Of a stretch of DNA of 18,418 bases, positions 3,983-18,418 are shown piece after piece. Location: assembly GCA_900540865.1 (NCBI GenBank), contig UQHH01000055.1, forward strand, positions 1-18,418, written 5' to 3'. The notes beneath the pieces are model-generated. The model saw only the letters and a list, made by a program, of their open reading frames with translations. It made no database searches and was not told the DNA's origin. The position numbers and the translations under genes were made by a program. Origin of the DNA: an uncultured Oscillospiraceae bacterium (GTDB lineage: Bacteria > Bacillota > Clostridia > Oscillospirales > Acutalibacteraceae). Position 1 is the first letter of the stretch. Every line of letters starts with the position of its first letter.

Positions 3983-5200
3983 TTAATCGGCGCGCATTTT
4001 CTTTTTTTGTTTTCCTGCATACATCCTCCGGTCCGCCTCATAAATCAGCGTATCAGGATTCCGGTACCCCGCCGCGTCGACAATGCCTATGCTCAAAGAC
4101 AAGTCAAACGGGTATTCCTCCGATTTGCTTTTCTCCTGCAATGCTTCCTGCACGTTTTGCAGCCTTTGCTCCGCCTGCGCGGTATCTACGCCGCCGAGAA
4201 GAATAATAAACTCATCTCCCCCATAACGGCAGAGAATATCCTTATCACCGGCACATACCTCCCCAAGCTGCTGCGCCACGGCGACGATATAGCGGTCGCC
4301 TGTCTGGTGCCCGAACTTATCGTTGACGTTTTTAAGGCCGTCCAAATCGGCAAAGCAAAGGCAAAAGCAGTCGCGTTTTTCCATTCGCTGTGTGAGCAGC
4401 ATAGAAAAATACTTCCGGTTGCAGCAGCCGGTCAGCGGGTCTGTATACGCAAGGAAATGAAGCTCGCTTTCCTCCTGCATCCGTTTTAAAAGCTCCTCAT
4501 GCACCGCGTGGTTCTGCTCGCGGTACCTGTTGAGCCTGCTCATTTTGTAGGCATAGAGCGTTGCGATATAATAGCCTATCAGTACGCTGATACAGGCCTT
4601 GATGACCCAGACTTTAAAAATCAGGTAATTTCCCGGCATGTAATAGACAAGCAGGTTTAAAAAGAGGTAGCAGTACATCGCAATCATGAGCCGCGTCGAA
4701 AATTTCAGGTTCGACGGGTCGGCCGCAATGGCGCTGACACGTTCCATCCATACTGTTTTTCTAATGACCTGAAAAACAATGCCGGCAAGGACAAACGCCG
4801 CAGCTACCGGCACAAATCTATATTCGTTGTTCGGGCTAGTGCCGTCAAAGGCAGAGGTAGGTACATTTTGCGCTATTGCCGCGACCGACCGGGAAAGGAT
4901 ATTGATGCTCAGGCCAATCAAAGCGCACGTAAAGCCGTGGAACACACCCTGCCGTACCGGGCATTTGAATAAAAGGGTGGTTTCGGCGACCAGAAAAACG
5001 GCAAACACCGTCCAGTTGACAATCAGGTGGAGCTGTAAATAGCTGCAGGCAATAAACAGGATATAATTGACCGCAAAGGTTGCGCCTATGCCCTTCCAGC
5101 GCGCGACGTTCCGCCCCGTCTGTTCCCCAATATATTGAAAATACTGCCAGTTGCAGTAAAAATACGCGGGGGAAAACAATAAAATGATAAGCAGCTGCAT
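3983..5200 (-). CDS. Membrane-anchored diguanylate cyclase (GGDEF domain). The N-terminal ~230 aa has multiple TM helices; the C-terminal part is a GGDEF domain with an RYGGDEF active-site motif.
   Basis: GGDEF-domain signature (DPLTGCCNRKYF ... RYGGDEFIILL) in the C-terminal ~170 aa; hydrophobic N-terminal half. The start ATG overlaps the upstream gene stop (TAATG). Confidence 0.85.
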   Translation of the reverse strand: MQLLIILLFSPAYFYCNWQYFQYIGEQTGRNVARWKGIGATFAVNYILFIACSYLQLHLIVNWTVFAVFLVAETTLLFKCPVRQGVFHGFTCALIGLSINILSRSVAAIAQNVPTSAFDGTSPNNEYRFVPVAAAFVLAGIVFQVIRKTVWMERVSAIAADPSNLKFSTRLMIAMYCYLFLNLLVYYMPGNYLIFKVWVIKACISVLIGYYIATLYAYKMSRLNRYREQNHAVHEELLKRMQEESELHFLAYTDPLTGCCNRKYFSMLLTQRMEKRDCFCLCFADLDGLKNVNDKFGHQTGDRYIVAVAQQLGEVCAGDKDILCRYGGDEFIILLGGVDTAQAEQRLQNVQEALQEKSKSEEYPFDLSLSIGIVDAAGYRNPDTLIYEADRRMYAGKQKKKMRAD

Positions 5201-6417
5201 TATGAACGTCCCCCTGACTGCCGGCTTTGCTTATCGGCATACATTTTGCGGTCGGCTTCGCTGATGAGCTGTTCGGCCGTCTTGGAGGAATGGGCGGGAA
5301 CCTCAACGACCCCAAAGCTGAACGACAGCGGAACCGCGCCCTGTCTGATAGCAGGCGCCTTTGCCCGGATTCCTTCCATTCGCGTATGTGCATGCAATTT
5401 GCCGCAATTTGGTAGTAAAATCAAAAATTCATCTCCGCCGATACGCGCAAAAATATCGCCTCGTTCAAGGTTTTCACGAATAAGCGACGAAAAGTCGAGC
5501 AGATAGCGGTCTCCTATCGTATGTCCAAACTCATCGTTGACCTGCTTTAAATGGTCAAGGTCGATATATACAAGCGCAAGCTGCTCACCACCCGTAAGCA
5601 GCAGGTTCATCTGCTCCATCGCAAACAGGCGCGTGTACGCGCCCGTCAAGCCATCGAGATACGCGGCAATCCGCAGCCTGCGCGCACGCCGCAAATGCTC
5701 CAGCTTTTGCCGTTCCAGCCGGTCGTGCTCTTCCTCGAGCCACGCGTTTTTCGTAATGGAGTAGACATGGCTCATAAATACATAAACCATCATCAGCAGC
5801 AAAAGCACGCTTCCAATCAAAAACAGCGCGGCAAAAGAACCCGGCAAATCGAACATGCTTGGTATACTGTCAAACAGAACATAACCCATTCCAAACCAGC
5901 TGAACCGGATGAGCAGCCGGAACTCTTCTCCGCTTTGGCCCATCAGACGGGATTTGTCGTTGATTTCTCCATTGTATATAATCACCAGCCCCGCAAGCAG
6001 GTCTGCAAGCGTCGCGATAATCAGACACAAATTTCGCATACTGAAGCTGGAAAGCAGCGCGTAGGTACTGGTTTGCAGAAAAAACGCCGTCACTCCCAGC
6101 ACGAGCAAGTGGACGCTTGCGAAAGCAAGTATCCCCATATCGGCGACAAACCAGCGGCAGACCATCCTGCCGCCGAGCAGCAGAAAAAAAAGGCATTTGC
6201 CGATAAAAAGCGTCAGGTAAAACACGGGCAGGGGTATTCCCCAAAGGCCCATTGCATAAAAAAACACAGCGGTAACCGCCATAAAACCAACAGCCCTCAA
6301 GCGTGGAATCTTCTCCCCCGGCTGAAGGATGGTAAAAAATTTCATTAAAATCAAATCGCAGGGCAAAACCAGCAGAACAAGCAAAGCCGGCAGCCCATAG
6401 TGGTACAAGGCAGGCAT
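5200..6417 (-). CDS. Second membrane-anchored diguanylate cyclase (GGDEF, RIGGDEF motif), paralogous and translationally coupled to the downstream gene.
   Basis: GGDEF signature (DGLTGAYTRLF ... RIGGDEFLILL); 6-7 hydrophobic helices N-terminally. The ATG at 6417 has a good SD (ggggagaagttATG). The ORF track's longer start at 6447 is a TTG without an SD. The stop overlaps the next start by 1 nt. Confidence 0.8.
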   Translation of the reverse strand: MPALYHYGLPALLVLLVLPCDLILMKFFTILQPGEKIPRLRAVGFMAVTAVFFYAMGLWGIPLPVFYLTLFIGKCLFFLLLGGRMVCRWFVADMGILAFASVHLLVLGVTAFFLQTSTYALLSSFSMRNLCLIIATLADLLAGLVIIYNGEINDKSRLMGQSGEEFRLLIRFSWFGMGYVLFDSIPSMFDLPGSFAALFLIGSVLLLLMMVYVFMSHVYSITKNAWLEEEHDRLERQKLEHLRRARRLRIAAYLDGLTGAYTRLFAMEQMNLLLTGGEQLALVYIDLDHLKQVNDEFGHTIGDRYLLDFSSLIRENLERGDIFARIGGDEFLILLPNCGKLHAHTRMEGIRAKAPAIRQGAVPLSFSFGVVEVPAHSSKTAEQLISEADRKMYADKQSRQSGGRS

Positions 6418-6750
6418 AACTTCTCCCCACTCTCTTGCGCACGGCAAAGAACCGGCGCGGCTTACGGCCCAAAATGGCCGCAGCCATCAAATATAATCTT
6501 CTCCAAAGTATTCCGTTCAAAAAGCAATCGTTACGCCCGGCTGCCCAGGCAATCCATAATATGATACCTCCGCGGTCCTGGAAGAGCCACCCTTGCTCCT
6601 GCCATACAGCGCTGTGGTTTCACAGACAAAGACCGCTTTTTTATCATTCAAGGTTTCCCCATTTTCATAACTATAGTTTAACATATGTGTGAAAATAAAA
6701 CAACAGCCATTCCTGTTTTACATAATGCAAAATTTGCTGAATCCATAGCT

Positions 6751-13264: not shown

Positions 13265-13304
13265 TTTTGTTCTTGGATGAATGTTTTATATGGTGTGTAA
13301 GGAA

Positions 13305-13847
13305 TTAGCCAAAATATCTTTCGAGAAGGCCCTTGAAGCCCGCGCCGTGGCGCGCCTCGTCCTTCGCCATCTCGTGGACGGTGTCGTGGATTGCGTCGAG
13401 GTTCAGTTGCTTTGCTTTCTTGGCAATCTCAAACTTGCCCGCGCACGCGCCTGTTTCCGCGTCGACTCTCATCTGGAGGTTCTTCTTCGTACTGTCCGTT
13501 ACGACCTCGCCGAGCAGCTCGGCAAATTTCGCGGCATGCTCCGCCTCTTCAAACGCGTACTTGGTGAACGCGGCGGAAATTTCAGGATAGCCTTCCCTGT
13601 CGGCTACTCTTGCCATCGCAAGGTACATACCGACCTCGGAGCATTCGCCGTTGAAGTTCTCAACAAGCCCGTCATATATTTCCTTGTCGACGCCCTTGGC
13701 AACGCCGACCTCATGGACGGTCGCGAATCCGGCGTCTTCCGTAACCTCGTTAAATTTTGCCTTCGGGGCCTTGCAGATGGGACATGCGTCCGGTGCCTCT
13801 GTACCCTCATGAACATAACCGCAAACAGTACATACAAACTTTTTCAT
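13305..13847 (-). CDS. rbr: Reverse rubrerythrin: N-terminal rubredoxin-like Cx2C...Cx2C domain followed by a ferritin-like diiron domain.
   Basis: [29 protein letters not shown], then four-helix-bundle motifs (EEAEH, EARH). The domain order (rubredoxin first) is that of clostridial revRbr. The SD is ggagg 9 nt before the ATG. Confidence 0.85.
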
Positions 13848-13905
13848 AACAAATTGCCTCCATTTTTATGTAATTAATTTATTTTTTATCCGGGAAAACC
13901 CGGCG

Positions 13906-15485: not shown

Positions 15486-16034
15486 ATGCCATCGGTTTTT
15501 TTAAGCCCCTCCACACAGGAGTTCAATCCCTACGTAGACGGCGGCAACGAAGAATATTATATGAACCTGATTGCGGACGCGATGATACCGTACCTTATGG
15601 CAAGCGGAATCACCGTGGCGCGCAACAATCCGGAAGAAAGCCTGCGCCAGGCAATCAACCTTTCAAATTCCGGCAACTACGATTTGCATTTGGCGCTGCA
15701 TTCAAACGCCGCGCCGCCAAACCTTGCGGGGCAATTGAGGGGCACAGACGTTTATTATTACGCGTCGAGCCAGCCGAGCGCCGCGGCAGCCAATATTATC
15801 GCGGATAATTTTAAAAAGGTTTACCCAAACCCAGCGCTCGTAAAGACCGTGGGCACTACAAGCCTTGCGGAGCTGCGCATGACCAGGTCGCCCGCGGTGC
15901 TCATTGAGATTGCGTATCACGACAATCCGCAGGACGCACAGTGGATACGGGATAATATTGACGCGATTGCGCGGAATCTCGCGATGTCGGTCGCGGAGAT
16001 TTTGAAGGTTCCGTTCAGGGAACCCACCGCTTAA
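15486..16034 (+). CDS. N-acetylmuramoyl-L-alanine amidase family (Amidase_3-like) protein, atypical N-terminus, 182 aa.
   Basis: The C-terminal two-thirds match the Amidase_3 core (DLHLALHSNA ... GTDVYYY ... PAVLIEIAYHDNPQD). The canonical N-terminal DxGHGG zinc motif is replaced by FLSPSTQEF, and no signal peptide is present. The ATG at 15486 has GGAGG 13 nt upstream. Confidence 0.55.
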   Translation: MPSVFLSPSTQEFNPYVDGGNEEYYMNLIADAMIPYLMASGITVARNNPEESLRQAINLSNSGNYDLHLALHSNAAPPNLAGQLRGTDVYYYASSQPSAAAANIIADNFKKVYPNPALVKTVGTTSLAELRMTRSPAVLIEIAYHDNPQDAQWIRDNIDAIARNLAMSVAEILKVPFREPTA

Positions 16035-16037
16035 ACG

Positions 16038-16070
16038 AAAAAGGAAGGGCAAAAGCCCTTCCTTTTTCTA
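16038..16070 (+). terminator. Rho-independent terminator aaaaaGGAAGGGC-aaaa-GCCCTTCCttttt.
   Basis: Perfect 8-bp GC-rich stem (13 bp if the A/T flanks are included) followed by a T-run, 4 nt after the amidase stop. Confidence 0.8.
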
Positions 16071-16340
16071 TTCCTTTTACTTTTTCTATTCCTTTTATAA
16101 AAAGAATTTTTATGATTTCTCTTTTATAGCTTTTTACTGATTTTTAAGAAACGTACTTTTCTTGGATTTAAAACTTATTATGTTAATTCAAAACGACGGG
16201 AACCGTGTATTGGTTTCCTCTTTCTCATTTTGAAGCATACTGCTTTTTGTTTTTTTATTTGAAACGTATCCGTTTCTTTTTAATAAACCAAACATTCTGG
16301 TTCTTGAATTTCTTCATCAAACTTTCTATGTTATCTTTTT

Positions 16341-16577
16341 CAAAAGGAAGAAACCGTTTTCGCCGGTTTCCTCCTTTTGGAATCTTCTTTCCGGCGACAG
16401 GGAAAACCTCGTCGCAGGTTTTCCCTTGACCCTTTCCAGCCGAGCAAGGGGCTTCGCCCCTTACAATCCCTGTTTTATAGTAAGCTTGACCGTTCCTCGT
16501 TTTGTGTACGGGTTGTAGAAACGGTACTACGGGACCGCCCAGCGCCGCGCCTGCGCGCGGAGTTCTTCGTGGGTGCG
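16341..16577 (-). repeat. Copy A of a ~235-bp hairpin-dense element (candidate structured ncRNA or cis-regulatory/boundary element). It is oriented on the minus strand relative to copy B.
   Basis: ~88% identical to the reverse complement of 18157..18391. It contains at least five stem-loops read from the sequence: CCGCGC-GCAG-GCGCGG; GUAG-N8-CUAC; GGGGC-GAA-GCCCC; GGGAAAACC-UGCGACGA-GGUUUUCCC; and a 16-bp stem CAAAAGGAGGAAACCG/CGGUUUCUUCCUUUUG. Confidence 0.6.
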
Positions 16578-16773
16578 TTTTTTTAATGAAGCATACTGCT
16601 TCTTGTTTTTCTTCATGAATTTTTCTATGTAGGTACAGTTCTTTCCTTGTATATGGAGTACTTCATAGGTGCGGTACCTCCTTATACGGTTTACTGGTAA
16701 CGGCATAATTTCAGTAAATAGAAGAATTTATTCTGCAATTTGCTGATGTGCCGTTTTACTGGTTTTCTGTCTG

Positions 16774-17142
16774 CTAGACAATATTTACGGGGAACGGTAG
16801 GGCATCTTCCAGTAAGGCCGCAAGCATCAGGCGCGCCCCCAGCCGGTAGCCCTGCGTAAAGCTTTCTATACTCGCTATGTCCAGCAAGTCCTGCTGGCCT
16901 TTCTCCAGATATTCGGTAAACAGCGCCTCGTGCTCTTTGCCGAGCTGCCTCAATATTTCGTCCTCCGGTTTTTTCATCCTCTCTACAGCCTTCTGGTATG
17001 CGGGCGTTGATTTCAAGATACCGGGCTTGATGTCCCCGTAATATAGCTGTTCCAGAATAGGCGTGCTTTCTTCCGCCTTCTGTTCGGGAATACCGCTTTC
17101 CTTTATAAACGGCTGGGTCTGTGCCTTTTTCTCCTTTTTCAT
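16774..17142 (-). CDS. Hypothetical protein, 122 aa. Lys/Glu-rich N-terminus, conserved YYGDIKPG segment, helical C-terminus. Third gene of a three-gene minus-strand cassette.
   Basis: Strong SD (ttGGAGGaagacatATG). The start overlaps the upstream stop (ATGA). No family recognised. Confidence 0.6.
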   Translation of the reverse strand: MKKEKKAQTQPFIKESGIPEQKAEESTPILEQLYYGDIKPGILKSTPAYQKAVERMKKPEDEILRQLGKEHEALFTEYLEKGQQDLLDIASIESFTQGYRLGARLMLAALLEDALPFPVNIV

Positions 17143-17456
17143 ATGTCTTCCTCCAACTGCTCTATGTCATTCTGCCTGCCGCAGCAGGATTTCAGCATAT
17201 TTGTGACAAAGCCGTATCCATTGCCTATGTCATCGTACGCACAGCTTTTATTTAGACACCAATGCACGCACGCCAGGACAAAACGATTTATTTGAAAGTT
17301 ACGCTGCTTTCTGTCCATATCCAGTTCGTCGTCGAGCAGCAGGTAGTTTTCAAAGCATCCTACCGCAAAGCCGATTTGCTCCAAAATCTTGTTATCCAGC
17401 AAAAACGGGTAGTTACTTTCATCATAGGGCGGCGGTAATTTCAATTCTAAATTCAT
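17139..17456 (-). CDS. Hypothetical small protein, 105 aa, paralogous to the gene immediately upstream (shared LE.IGFA N-terminal motif, conserved Cys positions, LKSCCGRQN C-terminal motif).
   Basis: SD GGGAGG 8 nt before the ATG. The start abuts the upstream stop (no gap). The paralogy is seen by aligning the two translations by eye. Confidence 0.6.
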   Translation of the reverse strand: MNLELKLPPPYDESNYPFLLDNKILEQIGFAVGCFENYLLLDDELDMDRKQRNFQINRFVLACVHWCLNKSCAYDDIGNGYGFVTNMLKSCCGRQNDIEQLEEDI

Positions 17457-17753
17457 TTAATTTTCCTCCCTTATCTTTTTATTCTGTTTCCCGCAGCTTA
17501 ATTTCAGGCACAAAGCAATCGTTTCACAAGCGTCTTCTGCTTCCGTTTCCCTGTCACAGGCGCAGAGGCTTGCCGCCAAATATGCAAGGCAAAAATAATC
17601 TTCATACTCAGACTTTCCAAACGGTACCACGTCAAACACACGGAAAATATTAAACGCCCTGCTTGCAAACCCGATTTTCTCGAGCACGCCTGTATCAAGC
17701 TCCGTTTCCTCCAACAGCTCTAAAAGCACTTTCTTTTCCACCATGTCATTCAT
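17457..17753 (-). CDS. Hypothetical small protein, 98 aa (from the second ATG), Cys-containing (C-x8-C-x-C-x8-C ... LKLSCGKQN). First gene of the cassette operon.
   Basis: GGAGG lies 6 nt before the second ATG (17753); the first ATG (17759) directly abuts the SD. Paralogous to the 17139..17456 product. A perfect TATAAT -10 lies on the minus strand at 17820-17825. Confidence 0.6.
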   Translation of the reverse strand: MNDMVEKKVLLELLEETELDTGVLEKIGFASRAFNIFRVFDVVPFGKSEYEDYFCLAYLAASLCACDRETEAEDACETIALCLKLSCGKQNKKIREEN

Positions 17754-17831
17754 AAACATCCTCCTAGAAAATTAAGCTATGGCAACTTAAAACAAATGCT
17801 AAATAAATGTCTAACAAATATTATAAGCGTT

Positions 17832-17897
17832 TGTTTTGTGTTCTTTAATTTTGAATATACCACACTTGTGTTCTGTTTGCAACACTTTTGTGGTGTT
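17832..17897. promoter_or_regulatory. Divergent promoter/operator region between the cassette operon (-) and the XRE gene (+): reiterated TTGTGTT / ACACTT(TT)GTGGTGTT motifs and a GTGTT-N8-AACAC dyad; candidate binding sites for the adjacent XRE regulator.
   Basis: Direct repeats ACACTTGTGTT (17862-17872) and ACACTTTTGTGGTGTT (17882-17897); TTGTGTT also at 17836-17842; dyad GTGTTctgtttgcAACAC at 17868-17885. All read from the sequence. Confidence 0.3.
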
Positions 17898-17927
17898 TTA
17901 TGTTATAAAATTTCTGGAGGTGACAAA

Positions 17928-18149
17928 ATGTACTATTATACAGAAAGGCTTACAAATTTAAGAGAAAAAAATGGTTTGACAAAAAAACAGGTTGCAGATG
18001 CAATAGGAGTAAAACCGGAGCAATACAGGCGCTATGAAATTGGACAAAATGAAATAAAGGCAAGTCACATTGTGAAATTTGCTGAATTCTATCATGTTTC
18101 TGCTGACTATATTTTGGGATTAACAAAGGATAAAAGAAAATTTTGGTGA
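17928..18149 (+). CDS. XRE-family (Cro/cI-type) helix-turn-helix transcriptional regulator, 73 aa.
   Basis: HTH_3 signature (LRELREKNGLTKKQVADAIGVKPEQYRRYEIGQNEIKASHIVKFAEFYHVSADYILG). SD GGAGGTGA 7 nt before the ATG at 17928; the ORF track's start at 17796 is an upstream in-frame extension without an SD. Confidence 0.8.
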   Translation: MYYYTERLTNLREKNGLTKKQVADAIGVKPEQYRRYEIGQNEIKASHIVKFAEFYHVSADYILGLTKDKRKFW

Positions 18150-18156
18150 AAATACT

Positions 18157-18391
18157 TCACTCACAAAGTATTCCGCGCGAAGGCGCGGCGCTGAGCGGTC
18201 CCGTAGTATCTTTTCTACAACCCGTACATAAAACGAGGAACGGACAAGCTGTCTATAAAACGGGGATGGTAAGGGGCGCAGCCCCTTGCTCGGCTGGAAA
18301 GGGTCAAGGGAAAACCTGCGACGAGGTTTTCCCTGTCGGCGGAAAGGTGATTGCAAAAGAGGAAAACCGCCGAAACGGTTTCCCTCTTTTG
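18157..18391 (+). repeat. Copy B of the ~235-bp hairpin-dense element, inverted relative to copy A. It lies immediately 3' of the XRE gene and 5' of an MKK... ORF start at 18411 that is cut by the window end.
   Basis: See copy A. Identical stems, with differences concentrated in loops. The terminal 16-bp stem shows two compensatory base-pair swaps relative to copy A (G-C/A-U changed to A-U/G-C). Confidence 0.6.
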
Positions 18392-18418
18392 AATAAACAT
18401 ATAAAGTTTTATGAAGAA

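Follow-up and report, generated by a model that had tools for sequence, protein, structure and literature searches.

An 18,418-nt stretch of contig UQHH01000055.1 from an uncultured Oscillospiraceae bacterium (hereafter the window) contains two inverted, hairpin-dense elements that bracket a small gene cassette and that an original prediction, made from the letters alone, had presented as a structure maintained by compensatory base changes. Comparison with related contigs revealed that these elements, copies A and B, do not form a unique RNA gene but belong to a modular repeat family, rich in hairpins and present in many copies, that brackets regulator cassettes and of which they make up a single locus. 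The multi-copy status, modularity, mosaicism, arrangement in pairs, and non-coding nature of the family follow directly from the copies described below. With a probability of about one-half, we read the family as a lineage-specific mosaic repeat of the BIME/BOX kind, whose bidirectional terminators insulate regulator cassettes and which is reshuffled by recombination.

A repeat search of the window delimited the arms of the inverted pair at 16332-16584 and 18149-18401 (253 nt, 85% complementary, with a spacer of 1564 nt), and the coordinates given earlier (16341-16577 and 18157-18391) lie inside these arms. The two copies are 88.2% identical over 245 nt (blastn), and both arms face outward from the cassette (A on the minus strand, B on the plus strand). 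The parts of the pair that carry the argument are as follows:

16341..16584, minus strand: element copy A, with a type 1 central module, in the order 5′ domain, central module, linker, terminator hairpin
18149..18401, plus strand: element copy B, type 1; its first base is the last base of the stop codon of the helix-turn-helix (HTH) gene
16342..16378, minus strand: terminator hairpin of A, AAAAGGAGGAAACCG-GCGAAAA-CGGTTTCTTCCTTTT, 15 bp, with A4 and T4 at its base
18355..18390, plus strand: terminator hairpin of B, AAAAGAGGAAAACCG-CCGAAA-CGGTTTCCCTCTTTT

Copy A was found 100% identical in the metagenome contigs L001, L002, L012, and L013, and copy B has a perfect match of 219 nt in a copy at another genomic site (L003). 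The inverted repeat extends about 90 nt beyond the arms, outward on both sides; repeat-derived DNA reaches approximately position 16140 on the left, where the repeat block at 8214-8703 of L001 equals window positions 16141-16630, and passes the end of the window on the right.

Both copies fold at about -100 kcal/mol, compared to about -75 kcal/mol for dinucleotide shuffles (z-scores of -4.9 for A and -5.0 for B; 0 of 200 shuffles equaled either). The loop differences between the copies that had been reported (GCAG/GAAG, GAA/GCA, and UACCGUUU/UAUCUUUU) are present in the sequence, the 9-bp stem GGGAAAACC-UGCGACGA-GGUUUUCCC is the same in A and B, and in the terminal stem, 2 adjacent pairs are indeed exchanged on both arms (G-C and A-U in A; A-U and G-C in B). 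Beside the exchanged pairs, a G.U of A is G-C in B, and a G-C of A is an A.C mismatch in B. The Shine–Dalgarno-like AAAAGGAGGAAACC, which had been described as part of the structure, occurs in copy A only, with AAAAGAGGAAAACC in its place in copy B. Taken as a description of non-coding, strongly hairpin-forming, outward-facing elements with a terminator-like end, the original prediction is well supported.

The extent of the family became apparent from a metagenome scan with a pattern built from invariant 5′ positions, after which copies were mapped by nhmmer. The scan returned 25 loci, with a single assembly (OJQY01) bearing the element on at least 10 contigs, and the mapping placed about 20 copies at 11-13 loci of this assembly. 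Overall, 28 distinct full-length copies were found in contigs from human-gut and other metagenome assemblies, many of the short contigs terminating within the element. At least 10 distinct inverted pairs face outward, with 100, 134, about 430, about 1000, or 1600-1800 nt enclosed between the two copies; 4 tandem arrays and single copies occur as well, and no inward-facing pair was seen among the mapped loci. The same HTH and small-protein cassette, together with the 100% identical copy B, adjoins rimM and trmD on L003, and the sample containing L003 also carries the amidase locus (L053), so that one cassette is present at two sites in one sample. In the L002 strain, a third, tandem copy follows B.

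Searches outside of these assemblies point to a narrow distribution. Phage and plasmid records contained no element match by blastn, and one scan of viral contigs with a 19-nt core returned only 2 chance matches, both within coding sequence. Among 185,579 species-representative genomes, a pattern common to the element and the Rfam motif Clostridiales-2 matched 8 times, none of the matches being the element. The element is absent from the DNA beside the orthologous amidase gene of sister species (87% and 75% identity), where the gene order shifts right after this gene. The nearest named relatives of the flanking proteins and of the HTH protein belong to metagenome-assembled genomes (MAGs) of Acutalibacteraceae or "Clostridiales". 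The best reading of this distribution is that the repeat family is restricted to one lineage of uncultured gut Clostridia, and no database search result identified it as a family that has already been described.

A lone hairpin, CAAAGGAAAAAACAG-TTCG-CTGTTTTTGTCTTTT, preceded by ATGATTATCTTTT, was observed at 3745-3800 of L085, a sister-species contig, after the orthologous amidase gene. It resembles the inner S end plus terminator module of the family, and this otherwise element-free species may thus have kept a degenerate remnant of it at the corresponding site.

The anatomy of the unit was derived from the alignment of the 28 copies, read in the orientation that had been proposed for A and B. 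The unit starts with 1-3 copies of the short repeat AAGTACC-N5-CACGARGTAC, followed by an invariant GC hairpin (CCGCGCG-nAGG-CGCGCGG) and a 5′ domain that is conserved in sequence. The subsequent central module exists in 3 interchangeable types: type 1 as in the window, type 2 with a single shorter hairpin, and type 3 with 3 hairpins and about 40 nt of additional length. After a short linker, a hairpin of 9-16 bp follows, its base flanked by A4 on the 5′ side and T4 on the 3′ side. The outermost modules are a conserved S module of about 45 nt and a variable number of perfect 15-nt hairpins (GAAGCA-nnn-TGCTTC and GAAACG-nnn-CGTTTC). Since the 3 central types combine freely with several terminator versions, the copies are mosaics. 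Furthermore, lone terminator-plus-S units, repeated 5′ units, and internally deleted units occur. Thus, the family shows the features of a mosaic intergenic repeat, namely variable hairpin modules, intergenic location, multiple copies, and the lack of a mobility gene of its own.

Within this unit, the terminator hairpin is the only part for which structural selection is demonstrable. It was found in 17 distinct versions, all of which fold (9-16 bp, -12 to -24 kcal/mol on both strands). Base pairs were counted by rank from the loop and not in a MAFFT alignment of the hairpins, because bulges displace the arms in such an alignment, and this count revealed at least 2 Watson-Crick pair types at nearly every rank. 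The terminator hairpin therefore shows real compensatory evolution, and the difference between A and B is one instance of it. The earlier claim of at least 5 stem-loops with compensatory changes accordingly stands for the terminator hairpin, at the level of the family, and fails for the 5′ domain.

The sequence features of a bidirectional terminator, a G+C-containing stem-loop followed by a U-tract on both strands, are present, with a U-tract of 4 nt. The hairpin is equally stable on either strand, and a terminator scan flagged both window hairpins on the plus strand. In addition, a terminator of lepA at 5095-5135 of L061, AGGAGGAAACCG-TTAAAA-CGGTTTCCTCCT, forms nearly the same hairpin as version A of the terminator module; this means that terminators derived from the repeat serve host genes or that the module itself originated from terminators of the host.

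The cargo of the cassette in the window consists of 4 small genes in a stretch of lower GC content:

16774..17142, minus strand: DUF6809 protein, 122 aa (PF20648, E 3.6e-17), with only 5 relatives found
17139..17456, minus strand: 105-aa protein with an "IGFA" motif, family not assigned
17457..17759, minus strand: 100-aa protein, with weak paralogy to the 105-aa protein (22-residue motif, E 7e-4)
17928..18149, plus strand: XRE-family HTH regulator, 73 aa, divergent from the three-gene operon

Across the examined pairs, the cargo comprises XRE-HTH proteins, ribbon-helix-helix repressors, DUF6809 proteins, and an "IGFA" family of 98-119 aa, and the cassettes are mostly divergently transcribed. 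In most examined pairs, the cargo is co-oriented with the adjacent element, the exceptions being the right copy of L081 and the near-empty pairs. Among the 3 roles that had been suggested for the elements, 3′ structures of two divergent transcription units is therefore the best fit, both in the window and at most other loci, where the cargo is co-oriented. The suggestion that they are leaders for outward-facing genes has to be given up: an exact-protein look-up placed the same locus on the 117-kb metagenome contig L001, where the right flank consists of a 131-aa gene followed by rpoD and dnaG, and with these flanking genes both window elements face the 3′ ends of convergent housekeeping genes. 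The genes to the left of position 16034 (CotH, two GGDEF proteins, SPFH, a UvrD-like helicase, Fur, a polysaccharide deacetylase, and an amidase) look like an ordinary chromosomal region.

As to the function of the cargo, sequence searches against PHROGs, NCBIfam, and PDB returned generic repressor matches only, and no literature on DUF6809 was found. The HTH paralogs of different cassettes look highly diverged by eye, without computed identities, and the repeats around them are 85-100% identical; this combination means that the repeats have spread recently or have been homogenized. A 75%-identical HTH homolog upstream of rpoB is followed by a plain terminator and no element, homologs at 65-70% identity reside in integrative elements devoid of the repeat, and more distant homologs from other species are likewise not followed by it. 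Two cassettes are found side by side at 1112-3529 of L077, where HTH, IGFA-family, and 130-aa protein genes and an element precede a second HTH gene and a DUF6809-like gene; hence, cassettes can cluster.

The most economical mechanism to account for this arrangement, to which we give an even chance of being correct, combines cassette termination and insulation with possible protection of mRNA 3′ ends and with recombinational homogenization. The A4-stem-T4 hairpin would act as a bidirectional intrinsic terminator, ending the outward transcripts of the cassette and blocking read-through from the neighboring genes, so that the cassette would be insulated. The structured body would be transcribed as the 3′ end of the cassette mRNA and may protect it from 3′ exonucleases. 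Copies would be homogenized and reshuffled by gene conversion or by site-specific exchange near the outer module, and such recombination between copies would explain why the repeats are 85-100% identical while their cargo consists of old, divergent paralogs.

Several points weigh against this mosaic-repeat reading. Four U residues on each side of the hairpin are weak for an intrinsic terminator, and we infer termination, insulation, and stabilization from anatomy. The invariance of 33 of 78 columns in the 5′ domain and the conservation of the S module are left unexplained by the model, and suggest that each of these regions has a sequence-specific partner, be it a protein or a nucleic acid. 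With respect to the mode of spread, no empty site was found, as the contigs with the amidase gene either carry the cassette or break at the repeats. Finally, the strand-consistent, sub-threshold match of type 1 modules to the Rfam family RF02937 (Clostridiales-2) would be more naturally explained by a functional RNA.

This last point leads to the most serious rival, according to which the main selected role of the element is that of a structured RNA of 240-300 nt related to Clostridiales-2, the copies forming a multigene RNA family. Such an RNA, either the 3′ untranslated region of the cassette mRNA or an independent small RNA, would terminate at an intrinsic terminator that it carries itself and would act in cis or in trans, e.g., through protein binding via conserved single-stranded stretches. 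We consider this unlikely, although it has to be taken seriously because the conservation of the 5′ domain and the similarity to an Rfam family are otherwise unexplained. The original prediction had named no matching RNA family, and at the gathering threshold no Rfam family matched in the window and 20 related loci, with one exception: near one repeat pair, a T-box leader was observed (RF00230, 101.8 bits; L062 904-1141, minus strand) that has no relation to the element. At permissive thresholds, type 1 central modules align over the whole 82-nt RF02937 model on the expected strand, i.e., the strand on which the 3′ hairpin lies and the upstream genes are read:

16387..16478, minus strand: central module of A, RF02937 (Clostridiales-2), 34.4 bits, sub-threshold (gathering score 58.6)
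18255..18346, plus strand: central module of B, RF02937 (Clostridiales-2), 27.7 bits, sub-threshold

A further type 1 copy, on L071, matches the model in full length at 28.5 bits. These scores are about half the gathering score, and with 27.7-34.4 bits for the window copies against the required 58.6, the element is not a member of Clostridiales-2; for the type 1 central module, a distant relationship is plausible. Modules of types 2 and 3 did not match RF02937 at E ≤ 1, and viral contigs scanned with the canonical Clostridiales-2 linker yielded no match. The strong folding of A and B would suit a structured RNA, as would the hairpins that are kept at the same positions with differing sequences in the 3 central types and the wobble U.G of the first central hairpin, which is C-G in one copy.

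A near-perfect counterpart of the 5′ half of the Clostridiales-2 consensus, AUAAAAUAGGGGGUGCAGGGGGCGAAGCCCCCUGCCG, was observed at 4842-4893 (plus strand) of L020, a hydrothermal-vent contig from a Chloroflexota MAG (DRAO01000086.1). This half-motif scores 35.6 bits, below the threshold, and lies near the contig end; its presence in a Chloroflexota contig means that it is not confined to Clostridiales.

The comparison across copies is less favorable to a defined RNA fold. The original prediction had read the pattern as a sign of selection on secondary structure, which does not extend to the family in general, as the 5′ domain lacks covariation and the central modules are either near-invariant or swapped wholesale. 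By formal counting in a gapless alignment of 25 sequences, the 5′ domain reached a covariation score of 0.028 compared to 0.027 for shuffles. The GC hairpin and the UCCC/GAGGA pairing are invariant and therefore uninformative on covariation, and 24-44% of copies break two predicted 5′-domain stems: the inner position of the GUAG/CUAC stem lacks pairing in 11 of 25 copies, and the CCG/CGG stem does so in 2-7 of 25, depending on the pair. The 5′ domain is thus conserved as sequence. The central hairpins, near-invariant within a type and substituted by other hairpins between types, fit a requirement for a hairpin at this position and not a defined fold; wholesale swaps of the central module and internal deletions would be unexpected for a defined three-dimensional structure.

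Nor is the strand decided by the copies themselves. Counts of G.U and A.C pairs amount to 160 and 23, respectively, in sense-strand structures and to 151 and 38 in antisense structures, which is indecisive, and the consensus energies are split, with types 1 and 3 favoring the sense strand and type 2 the antisense strand. The orientation chosen in the original prediction is favored, indirectly, by the Rfam match, by the co-orientation with upstream cargo, and by the position of the hairpin at the 3′ end. The pairs on L071 and L084, whose copies are 100-134 nt apart, and the right copy of L081 have no co-oriented gene before them and would need a promoter of their own, a point in favor of the RNA rival. 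No shared sense-strand promoter motif was found upstream of the copies, which counts against it.

A protein-coding role of the element was considered and rejected. The earlier statement that neither copy carries an open reading frame (ORF) holds insofar as no frame is kept across the 3 variants, but type 1 is stop-free over its full length in one sense and one antisense frame. Type 3 is open in the antisense direction only, and type 2 not at all. The 5′ domain has no codon periodicity (14, 17, and 14 variable columns by phase), and the differences between A and B within the open sense frame are mostly non-synonymous. The sense frame through copy B deserves mention, as it can be started from a GTG that overlaps the TGA stop of the HTH gene (GTGA) and then runs stop-free for about 100 codons through copy B and the S module. 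It spans window positions 18146-18418 and continues past the window end (L001 10219-10530), for which reason it was absent from the ORF list. This frame is not kept in the other variants, and it differs from copy A mostly by non-synonymous changes.

The alternative that the pairs are mobile DNA has its basis in their distribution. In the form of a non-autonomous transposon (a miniature inverted-repeat transposable element, MITE, or "mobile insertion cassette"), the arms would be terminal inverted repeats mobilized by a transposase in trans. This would account for a dispersed multi-copy family whose inverted pairs enclose cargo or almost nothing, for the presence of one cassette at two sites, and for the absence of the element at the orthologous locus of sister species. 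Its weakness lies in the outer ends, since the limit of the repeat-derived DNA varies in position within the small-hairpin and S modules, and no shared terminal sequence, target-site duplication, or flanking direct repeats were found at the outer limits examined. Moreover, the ends of transposons do not resemble arms of 250-340 nt that come with tandem arrays and lone sub-modules, divergence is far greater in the cargo than in the arms, and no transposase or recombinase is encoded in any cassette examined. We consider a transposon of this kind very improbable. The only transposase seen, an unrelated IS-type gene with a helix-turn-helix N-terminus (L083 106-1284, minus strand), lies beside a truncated inverted partner copy (1403-1477) that it apparently interrupts, which looks like an insertion sequence that landed in or beside the repeat. 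The idea of MITE-like boundaries of a mobile segment was therefore right in spirit, given the dispersed multi-copy family, but without fixed termini, target duplication, or a transposase in the cassettes read, the family is not a classical MITE.

An invertible segment, which had also been raised, has its basis in the geometry of the pair: long repeats (250-340 bp) at 85-88% identity flank a segment with divergent promoters and could flip the 1.6-kb cassette for phase variation. Within a limited sampling, all contigs that read past the repeats from the amidase gene have the same orientation, with the DUF6809 gene beside copy A, and no recombinase is encoded nearby. The segment is, furthermore, nearly symmetrical, having outward genes and an element at each end, so that inversion would change little. 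We consider a phase-variation switch the least probable of the explanations, with almost no chance of being correct.

The observations on strains bear more directly on the recombination invoked in the mosaic-repeat reading. Compared to L001, L002 contains an extra tandem unit, and compared to the window, L054 has a different terminator and inner S module; in both cases, identity breaks at the S core. As these strain differences consist of swapped or added modules, they indicate ongoing recombination. They also draw attention to the S module, which in the window is part of an array on the left side of the cassette:

16309..16336, plus strand: S-module core of A, read inward, TTTCTTCATCA AACTTT CTATGTTATCT, weakly promoter-like or dif-like (11-6-11)
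16609..16636, plus strand: another S-like core, inward of A, which repeats 16309-16336 in direct orientation
16588..16602, plus strand: small H hairpin, GAAGCATACTGCTTC
16231..16276, plus strand: two more H hairpins, outward of A (GAAGCATACTGCTT, 16232-16245; GAAACGTATCCGTTTC, 16261-16276)
16153..16230, plus strand: degenerate lone S-like and terminator-like remnant with a hairpin at 16198-16218, the outermost repeat-derived DNA on the left
16655..16684, minus strand: degenerate copy of the short 5′ repeat P0, GGTACCGCACCTATGAAGTACTCC, between the cargo and copy A, as compared with P0 units

The array thus reads, from the cargo outward, P0 remnant, S-like core, H hairpin, copy A, S core, two H hairpins, and remnant. 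Positions 16279-16331 and 16578-16630 form a direct repeat of 75% identity (repeat family D1), and since the second S-like core repeats 16309-16336 directly, copy A has a direct S repeat on either side. In the inward direction, the S module has the sequence CTGCTTCTTGGnTTTCTTCATAAAACTTTCTATGTT, with the terminator hairpin 3-9 nt further on, and the S cores lie at the outer end of each arm in every pair, pointing inward. A sigma-70 promoter directed into the element (TTGnnn, 17 nt, TATGTT) was tried as an explanation of this module and rejected: it matches 7-8 of 12 positions, was not flagged by the scan, and would fire directly into the terminator hairpin.

A more specific proposal for the S module is a dif-like site for XerC/XerD, the element pair and its cargo forming a module with the XerD arms directed inward. 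In this proposal, tandem units would be gained and lost by recombination between direct sites, and the structured arms would be accessory sequence. Reference dif sequences and the palindrome criterion were taken from Kono et al. 2011 (PMC3025954), which asks, for a 28-bp site of 11-6-11 layout, that positions 7-12 and 17-22 form more than 4 complementary pairs out of 6. The S consensus parses accordingly as TTTCTTCATAA AACTTT CTATGTTTAAT, with an almost invariant central hexamer, and matches the E. coli dif arms at 6 of 11 (XerC) and 9 of 11 (XerD) positions, single copies reaching 10 of 11 on the XerD arm. The palindrome criterion was passed by 16 of 31 instances; of the 15 that failed, 11 had exactly 4 pairs and 4 had fewer. 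Small cargo bounded by inversely oriented sites is characteristic of dif modules (PMC6449649), and the inversely oriented S cores around small cargo with regulator and possibly toxin-antitoxin (TA)-like genes resemble this arrangement. The direct S repeats around copy A and the breakpoints of both observable strain polymorphisms at the S core would fit as well.

The conservation profile of the S module speaks against such a site. Whereas dif sites have a XerD arm that is the more conserved one and high conservation at the inner palindrome positions (PMC6449649), in the S core conservation is lowest in the outer XerD arm (0.2-1.1 bit), position 18, a T in all 3 reference dif sites, is variable (0.5 bit), and the flank beyond the 28-mer is as conserved as the core. 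Recombination between inverted sites would invert the segment and not move it, and homologous recombination in a conserved module accounts for the breakpoints equally well. Furthermore, the likeness is subject to a look-elsewhere effect, as it was picked out from among many possible motifs. We therefore regard it as improbable that the S module is a genuine Xer-type site and that the cassettes are chromosomal dif modules, with about 250 nt of structured accessory sequence behind each site, that are gained, lost, and exchanged through the host dimer-resolution recombinases. Both this reading and the transposon are weaker than the structured-RNA rival. If the Xer reading were true, a system known essentially from Acinetobacter plasmids would extend to Firmicutes chromosomes, and the Clostridiales-2 "small RNA" would gain an explanation at the DNA level.

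Three further observations concern the window outside of the repeat pair. Between the amidase terminator (16037-16068) and the repeat-derived DNA, CTTTTTCTATTCCTTTTA is tandemly duplicated at 16063-16098. Two long ORFs overlap in opposite directions, at 13281-13877 (plus strand) and 13305-13847 (minus strand); the gene caller and Pfam identify the latter as a rubrerythrin, and the 198-aa ORF on the plus strand has no Pfam match. Finally, adjacent paralogous genes for GGDEF diguanylate cyclases of 405 and 415 aa, overlapping at stop and start, occupy 3983-6447 on the minus strand.

Returning to the mosaic repeat with bidirectional terminators, this reading, if true, would add a previously undescribed mosaic repeat in an abundant lineage of uncultured gut Clostridia, one in which bidirectional terminators enclose small regulator cassettes and which interrupts metagenome assemblies a dozen or more times per genome. 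It also suggests that Clostridiales-2, an orphan motif in Rfam and a candidate small RNA from bioinformatic prediction, may be a module of such repeats and not a free-standing small RNA. In more general terms, an apparently covarying RNA from one window turned out to be a member of a repeat family, which calls for caution in motif discovery from two copies.

Among known systems, the pdif/dif modules of Acinetobacter plasmids (PMC6449649) are comparable in that similar small TA-type or regulator cargo is placed between inverted short sites and shuffled between locations, and the S core shares the 11-6-11 layout and a good XerD-arm match with their dif sites. Unlike these modules, the cassettes described here have only a partial site match, which fails at several conserved positions, their sites lie within structured arms of 300 nt, and their setting is chromosomal and in a Clostridia lineage. 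Clostridiales-2 and the type 1 central module have in common the AUAAAA..GGG..UG lead-in, an 8-bp hairpin with a 5-nt loop, a second hairpin, and the GUCG..GGAA tail, but the second hairpin of the type 1 module is 10 nt longer and its linker 3 nt shorter. In addition, the element is three times as long as the Clostridiales-2 motif, and 2 of its 3 central variants are devoid of the motif.

The terminator module corresponds to bidirectional intrinsic (rho-independent) terminators, which are generally known to consist of the same A-tract, G+C stem-loop, and T-tract, which yields a hairpin with U residues after it on both strands. Like these, it is located between convergent transcription units, and its stem is kept by compensatory changes. 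It differs from the usual bidirectional terminators in that its U-tract comprises just 4 residues and in that the hairpin is a module of a repeat and not specific to a gene. In organization, as opposed to sequence, where no similarity is expected, the family resembles the BIME/REP mosaics of enterobacteria and the BOX elements of Streptococcus pneumoniae. They, too, are multi-copy and intergenic, are composed of hairpin modules that vary in number and order, and are often found at the 3′ ends of transcription units, with no transposase of their own. Compared to these families, the units described here are far longer, measuring 220-300 nt, to which the outer modules add about 90 nt; they include a long 5′ domain whose conservation is one of sequence, and they are arranged as outward-facing inverted pairs around regulator cassettes.

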